Below, piece by piece: positions 6,403-9,400 of a stretch of 34,391 nucleotides of DNA (its first letter is position 1; each line of letters begins with the position of its first letter). The DNA lies in the IMG/VR virus record IMGVR_UViG_2645727673_000011, positions 1 through 34,391 of that record; one strand, 5' to 3'. A program made the translations under genes and the position numbers. The notes beneath the pieces were generated by a model. It saw only the letters and a program-made list of their open reading frames with translations. It had not been told where the DNA came from and made no database searches. This stretch comes from a virus. Taxonomy: Duplodnaviria > Heunggongvirae > Uroviricota > Caudoviricetes.

Positions 6403-9400
6403 ATGAATGACGTTACAGTTGTCACATCGGTTACTTACCCATCACCCGAGTCGTTGGCTCTGGTGGCTGATGTGCAATACCACGAACCATATCTGTCAGC
6501 CGCGCTAAACCGAAAATTCAGGGGAATTGTTGACCCTGGATTTTATGCCGGTTTTTTTCCTAAGCCTGGCGGTGGGATGAACCTGTTAATCACCTCAGTG
6601 GATGGTGATAAAACCGCTGGCGCGGCGTCAGTGAATATTGGTGAATTCTACCAGGTAACTATTCAGCAGCGTAAGGATATTTCTCTTGCACTTAGCGCAG
6701 GTAAGAAATATGCAATTGTGCTGAAGGGAAGATACCTCCTTGGAGAAGATTCTTATCAGGTTAATACCGCGTCACATATTCATGCGGCTGAATTTGTTGC
6801 CAGAACCTATACCGATTCATATCAGTTAGGAGATGGGGAACTGCTTGTTTGTACGGTGAATATCCCTGCTGGCGTATCTGCTATTACTAAGGAAATGATA
6901 GATGTATCCGACCGCATCGATCTCACGATAGGCATTGAAATTTCCGACTCTGTAACCAGTACCAGAAGTGATGTCGCTGCAAGTTCGCTGGCGGTTAAAA
7001 AAGCCTACGATCTGGCTAAAAGCAAGTATACGGCGCAGGATGCAAGCACAACACAAAAGGGATTAGTTCAGCTCAGTAGCGCAACTAACAGCGACAGCGA
7101 AACAATGGCGGCTACCCCTAAAGCCGTTAAGTCTGTAAAAGAGCTGGCTGATACCAAAGCGCCAATAGAAAGCCCGAGTCTGACAGGAACGCCAACCGCG
7201 CCGACGGCAGCGCAAGGTACAAACAGCACGCAGATCGCAAATACAGCCTTTGTTAAGGCAGCTATAACGGCACTTATCAACGGTGCACCTGGCACACTGG
7301 ATACGCTTAAAGAAATAGCTGCTGCGATCAATAACGACCCGAATTTCAGCACAACTATCAACAATGCTCTGGCTCTTAAAGCTCCTTTAGCAAGTCCTGC
7401 ATTAACGGGAATACCTACTGCGCCTACCGCTGCACAGGGTACGAATAACACGCAGATTGCTACGACCGCTTATGTAAGAGCTGCTATCTCTGCATTGGTC
7501 GGCTCATCACCTGAAGCTCTTGATACCCTGAATGAGCTTGCAGCAGCACTGGGCAATGACCCGAACTTTGCGACAACAATGACAAATGCGCTGGCAGGCA
7601 AACAGCCTCTGGATGCAACTTTAACCGCGCTTGCTGGTCTTGCGACAGGCGCAAATAAATTGCCGTACTTTACCGGTACAGACACTGTTTCCCAGACTGA
7701 TTTAACGTCAGTCGGTCGCGATATCCTGGCTAAAACAAGCACACTGGCTGTTATCCAATACCTTGGTTTAAGAGAAATCGGAACCAGCGGCGAAAAGATC
7801 CCCCTGTTGAGCACAGCTAATACCTGGAGTTCTCAACAGACTTTCAAAGGTAAGACAGCGTTTTCAGCCGCTGCTACATTCAGTGCCGGGATAGCAGGAG
7901 CCATCGAGCCGGAAGCCATTGACGGCCGGACTATTGATTTAAACGACTTGATTATTGCTAATACAGAAGCTGGATCCGTTAAATACTATCAATGCAAAAC
8001 TGTCGCAGGTGGTGCAAATATTACCAATAAGCCTGACGGCGTAAGCGGTAACTTTTTGGTTCGTGTAGAGTCGATTCGTAAGACTACGGGATCAGATTAT
8101 GCGAACATGCAAACGCTGATTAACAGCGACACAAAACGTATATACGTTCGCTTTGTTGTTAATGGAAACTGGACAGCGTGGAGTCAGGTTGTTGTTTCCG
8201 GATGGGGTCAGGATGTAAGTGTTAAGTCTCTTAGTGCCGTGGCTCTTAGTGGATCTTTGACAGGTAATGCATCCACCGCCACAAAACTGCAAACAGCACG
8301 CACAATCGGCGGAGTGTCGTTCGATGGTAGTGCCAATATCGACCTGCCGGGCGTGAATAAAGCAGGTAATCAGAGCACTACCGGCAATGCTGCAACCGCT
8401 ACGAAACTGCAAACAGTACGCACAATCGGCGGGGTGTCATTTGATGGTAGTGCCAATATCGACCTGCCGGGCGTGAATAAAGCAGGTAATCAGAGCACTA
8501 CCGGTAATGCTGCAACCGCTACGAAACTGCAAACAGCCCGCACAATCAACGGTGTTAAGTTTGATGGTTCTGCGAACATTTCGATACCAACAATTACGTC
8601 CAGAGGGCGTGTTACTGCGCTCACCGATACAACACAAGGTGCTGCTACTGGATTGCAGATGTATGAGGCGTACAACAATAGCTACCCGACCGCGTATGGC
8701 AACGTATTGCACATGAAAGGTGCGAGTGCTGCTGGTGAGGGCGAGTTGCTTATTGGCTGGAGTGGTACGAGCGGTGCACATGCGCCGGTTTTCATTCGCT
8801 CCCGAAGAGATCACACTGATGCGGCATGGTCAGCGTGGGCGCAGGTATATACATCAAGGGACTCCATTCCTGGTGTGAATGCCACTGGCAATCAGAATAC
8901 AACTGGCAATGCAGCAACTGCTACAAAACTACAGACGGCAAGAACTATCGGCGGAGTTAGCTTTGATGGTACTGCGAATATTAATTTACCTGGTGTTAAC
9001 GTTGCGGGTAATCAGAATACATCCGGTAACGCGGCTACAGCGACCAAGTTACAAACCGCTAGAACTATAAATGGGGTGTCGTTTGACGGTTCTAAAAACA
9101 TTGAGCTAACTCCAAGGTCTATAGGCACGATCAACTCAACAACAATGTCTTTTAGTGGTGGTGCTGGATGGTTCAAGCTGGCAACTGTAACCATGCCACA
9201 GGCCAGTTCCGTGGTTTACATAAGCCTGATTGGTAGTTCTGGATATAATGTTAACTCCCCTATGCAGGCTGGTATATCTGAACTTGTTCTTCGTGCGGGA
9301 AATGGGAATCCAAAAGGTCTTACTGGTGCGTTATGGCGACGGACATCGGTTGGATTTACTAATTTTGCATGGGTAAATACATCCGGTGATACCTATGATG

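Follow-up and report, generated by a model that had tools for sequence, protein, structure and literature searches.

An orphan cixR crossover site and an in-frame S-ddrB fusion in a probable P1-like resistance phage-plasmid of Escherichia coli

The stretch of 34,391 nucleotides analysed here (the window) is, with high confidence, part of a P1-like phage-plasmid (Punavirus) of Escherichia coli that carries multidrug resistance, essentially the plasmid pDETEC1 with one extra deletion, and two events explain what is seen in it. In the older event, which would belong to the whole lineage, the invertible C segment of P1 was probably replaced by a long, non-invertible mosaic fibre module together with a fragment of tfa. 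This replacement would have run from 87 bp inside the segment to about nucleotide 212 of cin, so that two thirds of cin would have been lost, along with cixL and the alternative Sv'/U' cassettes. In the recent event, apparently private to one clone, an illegitimate deletion of 8,300 bp would have joined codon 1020 of the tail-fibre gene S to codon 704 of ddrB at a shared TA, and the joint would have fallen in frame by chance, giving one open reading frame (ORF) of 1311 aa from the start of S to the stop of ddrB. Within this frame, at 7751-7776, stands a genuine invertase crossover site that has neither a partner nor a recombinase.

The site reads TTATCCAATACCTTGGTTTAAGAGAA on the plus strand and encodes VIQYLGLRE in S. 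It is identical at 26 of 26 positions to cixR of P1 on the S-sense strand, as annotated in the P1 record AF234172, and it matches P1 cixL at 22 of 26. It has the length of 26 bp, the imperfect dyad symmetry and the central AA/TT dinucleotide of a crossover site, and the central TT (7763/7764) is aligned with the annotated crossover point of P1 at 36480/36481. With up to three mismatches allowed, the sequence occurs once in the window and not at all in 100 shuffles, and in a scan with 26-mers built from the P1 half-sites it scores 24 of 24. The sequence-only reading of this DNA, which had proposed a Hin/Gin/Cin-type crossover site at this place, is thus borne out, and its count of 21 of 26 to hixL was obtained again with the sequence that we take to be hixL. 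That reading had named the junction cixL; in AF234172 the junction between the constant and variable parts of S (Sc/Sv) is cixR. This is a true crossover site whose match lies well beyond chance expectation, and it also codes within S.

Such an orphan site can invert nothing, because neither a partner site nor an invertase is present. The half-site scan found no second cix-like site in the window, the next-best 26-mer scoring 18 of 24, which is within the range of 16-18 given by shuffled sequence. A tblastn search of the window with P1 Cin gave as its sole match a 33% identical fragment at 34356-33979, spanning Cin residues 55-177. This fragment lies in the 3' part of tnpR, the resolvase gene of the Tn3-family transposon TnAs3 (33958-34391, minus strand), which is without its N-terminal catalytic part and adjoins the 988-aa TnAs3 transposase at 30989-33955; in pDETEC1 the copy of tnpR is cut by IS26 exactly at the position where the window ends. 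We therefore rejected 33958-34391 as an invertase or Cin candidate, and it is the only serine-recombinase homologue of the window. No adjacent serine invertase gene with an internal enhancer was found in the window, nor were alternative fibre and chaperone cassettes (Sv/U, Sv'/U') in the opposite orientation: no inverted fibre sequence lies downstream, where the region after 9460 is ddrB-hxr-isaB and is free of fibre cassettes. The earlier statement that neither an invertible segment nor cin is visible accordingly stands.

The surroundings of the site are those of a P1 tail-fibre locus up to a sharp limit. An intact R gene (gpR, tail-fibre-associated protein; 5957-6391, plus strand; phrog_2032 over its full length, E 6e-84) precedes the N-terminal constant part of gpS, which is recognised by phrog_454 and phrog_2631. 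The constant part of S (Sc) runs from 6403 to the crossover point at 7763 on the plus strand, its DNA being 92% identical to P1 Sc and 95% to stf of JL22, and R is 95% identical in DNA to the R-S region of JL22. The P1-like sequence goes on past the crossover point: the first 87 bp of the former invertible segment (7764-7850, plus strand) are still P1-like in alignments to both ends of the C segment, since the stretch 7753-7850 shares 86.7% identity with the beginning of P1 Sv' (cixL end), and an alignment of 92% identity to the cixR end, which covers 7244-7850, includes it as well. Homology to P1 and to JL22 alike stops at 7850/7851. The divergence, which had been placed exactly at the site, thus starts 87 bp beyond the crossover, at 7851.

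From 7851 to 9460 (plus strand) follows a fibre module foreign to P1 and belonging to the pDETEC1 lineage, 100% identical to pDETEC1 and 99.6% to pMB15031_2, which is truncated at 9460 in the window while S extends a further 1.4-1.6 kb in these two plasmids. The module holds repeats of 120 nt (40 aa) at about 8256-8580, and one piece of 470 nt, taken across the deletion breakpoint, is 94.5% identical to the fibre gene of a P2-like prophage. Judged from these alignments, the module is a mosaic, and it looks like an ordinary fibre mosaic, of the kind that arises when conserved fibre sequences recombine. The perfection of cixR itself can plausibly be explained by its position upstream of the replaced stretch and by its role in encoding VIQYLGLRE in the constant part of S, both of which would have kept it intact. 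More generally, a recombination site that doubles as coding sequence can stay intact after the rest of its system is lost, so that orphan sites alone are no proof of a working switch.

Comparison with complete replicons places the loss of inversion in the lineage and not in this clone alone. The nearest is pDETEC1 (NZ_CP116167.1), a P1-like plasmid of E. coli of 119,948 bp that carries mer, blaTEM-1, sul2, mph(A) and dfrA14. Positions 1-9460 of the window are 100.000% identical to it (0 mismatches in 9,460 nt) and positions 9450-34391 are 99.984% identical, with 1 mismatch and 3 gaps over 24.9 kb; in pDETEC1 a distance of 8,300 bp separates these blocks. The two share the orphan cix and the TnAs3 insertion adjoining ref, and they differ in that pDETEC1 retains the 8,300 bp between codon 1020 of S and codon 704 of ddrB. 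The four complete relatives pMB15031_2, pYLMB49b, pCARB35_01 and pDETEC1 all have a single long S gene, which measures 1475-1555 aa in its intact form, then part of tfa, a stump of cin and lydC. In pMB15031_2 the sequence becomes P1-like again within cin, near nt 212, and the stump of these relatives lacks the 3' end of cin and hence cixL, which in P1 overlaps that end according to the annotation of AF234172; as P1 homology resumes only there, cixL is gone from the lineage. What remains of cin in pDETEC1 is codons 1 to about 49-74, and in the window even this stump is deleted. The search of whole replicons for a second cix and an invertase, which had been proposed earlier, was made for pMB15031_2 and pDETEC1 and gave a single cix in each and no intact Cin homologue, while the controls P1 and JL22 gave two sites each. 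The suggestion that the fibre is locked in one orientation therefore fits the lineage, as the one S, partial tfa and cin stump of the four complete relatives agree with it.

Against P1 itself (AF234172; cixR at 36471-36490, cixL at 32215-32234, cin at 31660-32220), the window agrees in the position and strand of the identical 26-bp site within S, in the constant part of that gene and in the 87 bp that follow the crossover, whereas cixL, cin, the Sv', U' and U cassettes and the enhancer are missing. That P1-like resistance plasmids can lose cin and the C segment has been reported before and is not new. Truncated cin and the lack of a complete C segment were described in pSvP1, pTZ20_1P and pJIE250-3, and where cin is altered or truncated and the C segment lost or modified, loss of fibre switching was presumed (Venturini et al., 2019, PMC6906374). 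Region 3 (lydC-cin-Sv'-U'-U-S) is likewise a recognised variable region of P1-like plasmids (PMC9603915). The rearrangements in the three plasmids just named are mostly mediated by insertion sequences (IS), whereas the joint in the window is without IS and makes an in-frame S-ddrB fusion.

That fusion is the chimeric S'-'DdrB ORF of 1311 aa at 6403-10338 (plus strand), whose start codon and frame were checked. The profile search against PHROGs was decisive for the fusion ORF and its neighbours; Pfam and NCBIfam were uninformative on the same proteins, apart from Phage_fiber_2. Residues 1-1019 match tail-fibre PHROGs and residues 1020-1311 match positions 704-995 of the 995 of phrog_2299 (E 6e-170), a split at 1019/1020 that is backed by DNA mapping as well as by the protein profiles. 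We identify phrog_2299 with DdrB because 9459-11493 of the window is 97.8% identical to the P1 stretch annotated as ddrB-hxr-isaB. The 3' end of ddrB, codons 704-995, thus occupies 9461-10338 on the plus strand, with an HELGH motif at 9964-9978, and no full-length DdrB (about 995 aa) of the darA operon is found in the window, the darA operon upstream being deleted. The single 1311-aa frame of the sequence-only reading is therefore real as a frame, but its last 292 codons are ddrB and not fibre.

The deletion junction lies at 9460/9461 on the plus strand (...TTATACCAGTA / TTGGTGATATTG) and was located by comparison with the parental sequences, which are ...ACCAGTA / ACGCC in S and ...AACCAGGTTA / TTGGTG in ddrB. 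At the joint the parents have only TA in common, or imperfectly ACCAG..TA (2-7 bp). S keeps 3058 nt, that is 3x1019+1, and ddrB skips 2110 nt, that is 3x703+1, so the joint is in frame, for which the chance expectation is 1/3. The 8,300 bp of pDETEC1 that are absent from the window (13762-22061 of the pDETEC1 extract compared) comprise the 456 codons at the distal end of S (1475 aa in the parent), the remnants of tfa and cin, and further lydC, lydA, lydB, hdf, darA, ddrA and ddrB codons 1-703 (70% of ddrB). The complete distal, receptor-binding part of the fibre and a U/Tfa chaperone gene are accordingly missing from the window, the 456 distal codons and the tfa remnant having gone with the deletion. 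We take the deletion as real and clonal, because the fusion protein is present in at least five public E. coli contigs and the 2-7 shared bases are too few to mislead an assembler. The exact 1311-aa protein is WP_404854525.1, found on four contigs of up to 94 kb, and a variant of 1271 aa, one 40-aa repeat shorter and with the identical joint, is on a fifth contig; the contig of GCA_014878395.1 agrees with the window at every position of a 15.9-kb stretch that contains the joint.

It is on these grounds very improbable that the S-ddrB joint is an artefact of assembly or a chimeric contig. Such an origin would agree with the absence of the joint from the complete plasmids and complete E. coli genomes of the two collections searched, and with the look of the window, which resembles a short-read contig ending at an IS26 boundary; yet the same joint stands on the four exact-protein contigs and on the fifth, repeat-variant one, from at least two samples, and the parents share far too little sequence there for an assembler to collapse them. 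We give just as little weight to the reading closest to the original one, in which S would be a complete and functional fibre in one orientation whose C-terminal part was acquired by Cin-mediated exchange at cix. The intact cix, the lack of a partner site and of cin, and the turn to non-P1 sequence past the site would all suit this reading, and the sequence-only account had indeed held that the variable part was replaced through the cix hotspot. A Cin-mediated exchange, though, would set both boundaries at the crossover dinucleotides, and the boundaries are found at 7850/7851, 87 bp beyond the crossover, and within cin at about nt 212, so no swap at cix took place. Moreover, the last 292 residues of the supposed fibre belong to DdrB, which is an internal head protein, the fibre of the 1475-aa parent allele continues beyond 9460, and no chaperone gene follows the ORF.

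For the deletion itself, we considered whether Cin, Pin, Gin or a resolvase, all of them serine recombinases, had recombined quasi-sites, with crossover in a 2-bp TA overlap. The joints of the window and of a second plasmid, pCAVP819_2, share exactly TA with their parents and have the same left site, and Cin is said to use quasi-cix sites, as in the work of Iida; invertases, on the other hand, strongly disfavour deletion. In the register that fits the joint, the 26-mers at the two breakpoints match the cix half-sites at only 3+3 of 24 positions, while the ddrB site reaches 16 of 24 only in a register that predicts another joint, and the parent replicon is without an intact serine recombinase. 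The quasi-cix origin was rejected on the 3+3 count, and a serine recombinase of any kind has in our view very little chance of being the agent. It is still harder to believe, and we regard it as extremely unlikely, that S'-'DdrB is a selected new protein, for example a fibre stub that displays the metallopeptidase-like (HExxH) domain of DdrB. A selected protein would account for the in-frame joint, for the preserved HELGH motif and for an allele that persisted long enough for a variant in repeat number to arise. An in-frame joint is nevertheless expected in one case of three by chance, the parallel deletion of pCAVP819_2 is out of frame, the deletion in the window also takes away genes for fibre assembly, normal heads and holin function, and the persistence of the allele is explained by plasmid maintenance and the resistance genes. 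Under the preferred account of an illegitimate deletion, the fusion protein would be a by-product without function.

The left end of the deletion deserves separate description. The plasmid pCAVP819_2 (NZ_JBSTNM010000003.1) is of the same lineage, with flanks 99.7-99.9% identical, and has an independent deletion whose left end is at the identical nucleotide of S. Its right end is in darA (...GGACCGCTA / TCTGATG) where that of the window is in ddrB, sharing TA and out of frame, and unlike the window the plasmid has a second deletion from darA to isaA; its joint was found in that record alone. Random illegitimate recombination does not predict the identical left breakpoint of this second plasmid, and this tells against the preferred account. 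In the unrelated chromosome of E. coli LH10-b-1, an IS1A ends against this fibre module 3-5 nt beyond that nucleotide, and the module is common to P1-like plasmids and P2-like prophages. The left-flank site is intact in 10 of 10 IMG/VR contigs, and a 300-bp probe with the site at its centre aligned over 80% or more of its length to 233 of the 250 E. coli records that it matched. No match was obtained when metagenome and genome contigs were searched for the left flank with any base except A after it, or viral and genome contigs for the right flank with any base except A before it. The only local repeat at the breakpoint is a weak 8-nt inverted repeat 126 nt apart. Inspected by eye, the joints do not fit integron secondary sites (G/TT) or a loxP-like arm, and at a distance of 25-27 nt from the break in S there is no site for EcoP1I (AGACC) or EcoP15I (CAGCAG), though the plasmid's own Type III enzyme may differ in specificity.

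Because two deletions start at the same base, an IS1 end abuts the module 3-5 nt away and the module is shared by P1-like and P2-like elements, we mention as a minor and rather unlikely reading that the nucleotide after ...GGGATTATACCAGTA may be a specific hot spot of breakage or recombination and not a random deletion end. The shared left end could be a coincidence or a local fragile site. If a defined enzyme or DNA structure were responsible, a fibre cassette of wide distribution would contain a new fragile site.

As to consequences, the distal fibre and any chaperone are deleted in the window, and so is the lysis pair LydA/LydB (holin and antagonist). Loss of DarA or Hdf lowers the share of normal heads from about 80% to about 15%, and loss of both excludes the other Dar proteins from packaging (PMC12810830). 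With the distal fibre, Dar/Hdf and LydA/LydB lost, the element most likely persists only as a plasmid, with its maintenance and resistance genes as an aid; going by its gene content, it would no longer make adsorbing, normally headed virions, and it is very probably a non-infectious plasmid remnant of a resistance-carrying phage-plasmid. Such a loss of infectivity bears on whether resistance elements of this kind spread by infection. The decay is ordinary prophage decay and the site is one already known as P1 cixR, so that the findings matter little for biology and somewhat more for annotation. WP_404854525.1, named "pyocin knob domain-containing protein" at NCBI, should be corrected in this respect, since what is read as a "tail fibre / pyocin knob domain" protein is an S-DdrB fusion made by deletion.

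The gene order of the window is that of P1 reversed, with sit, pmgA, bplA, 16, R and S first, then ddrB (3' end only), hxr, isaB, isaA, ssb, lyz, pro and prt, and after these darB, ulx, lxc, mod, res, mat and ref, followed by the TnAs3 transposon. As lyz and lydD/lydE remain, lysis might still occur, which counts against the preferred account. The 104-aa ORF noted earlier after S is real and is the Xre-like gene hxr (10328-10642, plus strand; phrog_2292 over its full length; annotated hxr at 24244-24552 of P1), and the minus-strand genes beyond it, which had been called unrelated, are isaB, isaA and ssb of P1. Of these, isaB is at 10755-11375 on the minus strand (P1 isaB; phrog_30162, E 5e-145), and by sequence comparison hxr and isaB are the ordinary P1 neighbourhood of ddrB. 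The terminator proposed after the 104-aa ORF was not recovered in a simple scan of 10200-10900, and one is annotated in the homologous stretch of the P1 record AJ000741.

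The left end of the 8.3-kb deletion is not particular to the window. In the related plasmid pCAVP819_2 (NZ_JBSTNM010000003.1) an independent deletion has joined S to darA, and its left breakpoint falls at the same nucleotide. In both deletions the only sequence common to the joint and its parents is TA, and an IS1A end is found 3–5 nt from the breakpoint position in the same fibre module of an unrelated E. coli chromosome. The positions concerned are window 9460/9461 and, in comparison loci L004 and L020, 7638/7639 and 2502/2503, respectively.

The exact fusion protein encoded at window 6403–10338 is deposited as WP_404854525.1 under the NCBI name "pyocin knob domain-containing protein", which obscures the DdrB identity of its C-terminal 292 residues. 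This retained DdrB part gave no family match in Pfam and NCBIfam, and it carries a HELGH (HExxH) motif at residues 1188–1192 of the fusion (window 9964–9978), in agreement with the "possible metallopeptidase" remark in the P1 record. The S part contains tandem 120-nt (40-aa) repeats, including GNAATATKLQTARTIGGVSFDGSANI, at window 8256–8580, and their copy number is variable: both the 1271-aa variant of the fusion protein and pCAVP819_2 are shorter by one unit here, and additional copies occur further downstream in relatives. In the undeleted relatives only a tfa fragment lies 3' of S (15191–15541 in the pDETEC1 locus L019 and 12431–12781 in comparison locus L003), which PGAP marks as N-terminally incomplete, and a working fibre chaperone may be absent from the entire lineage.

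Elsewhere in the window, the P1 flanks of IS1, which in P1 lies between isaA and isaB, join at 11485–11493 with a 9-bp overlap, the length of the IS1 target duplication, and thus this empty target site represents the plasmid in its state before IS1 insertion. At 24511–29381 lie mod (651 aa) and res (970 aa), which form a Type III restriction-modification pair of the P1 type; in pMB15031_2, of the same plasmid lineage, a SIR2-family gene takes the place of this pair, indicating an exchange within a variable region that is already known. On the minus strand at 30989–34391, adjoining ref, lie the transposase and a resolvase fragment of the Tn21-like TnAs3. The window ends at the exact point where IS26 cuts tnpR in pDETEC1 (NZ_CP116167.1), and therefore it has the appearance of a contig assembled from short reads and interrupted at IS26; in pDETEC1 this cut borders a resistance region of approximately 24 kb that carries mer, blaTEM-1, sul2, mph(A), dfrA14, and aph(6)-Id.
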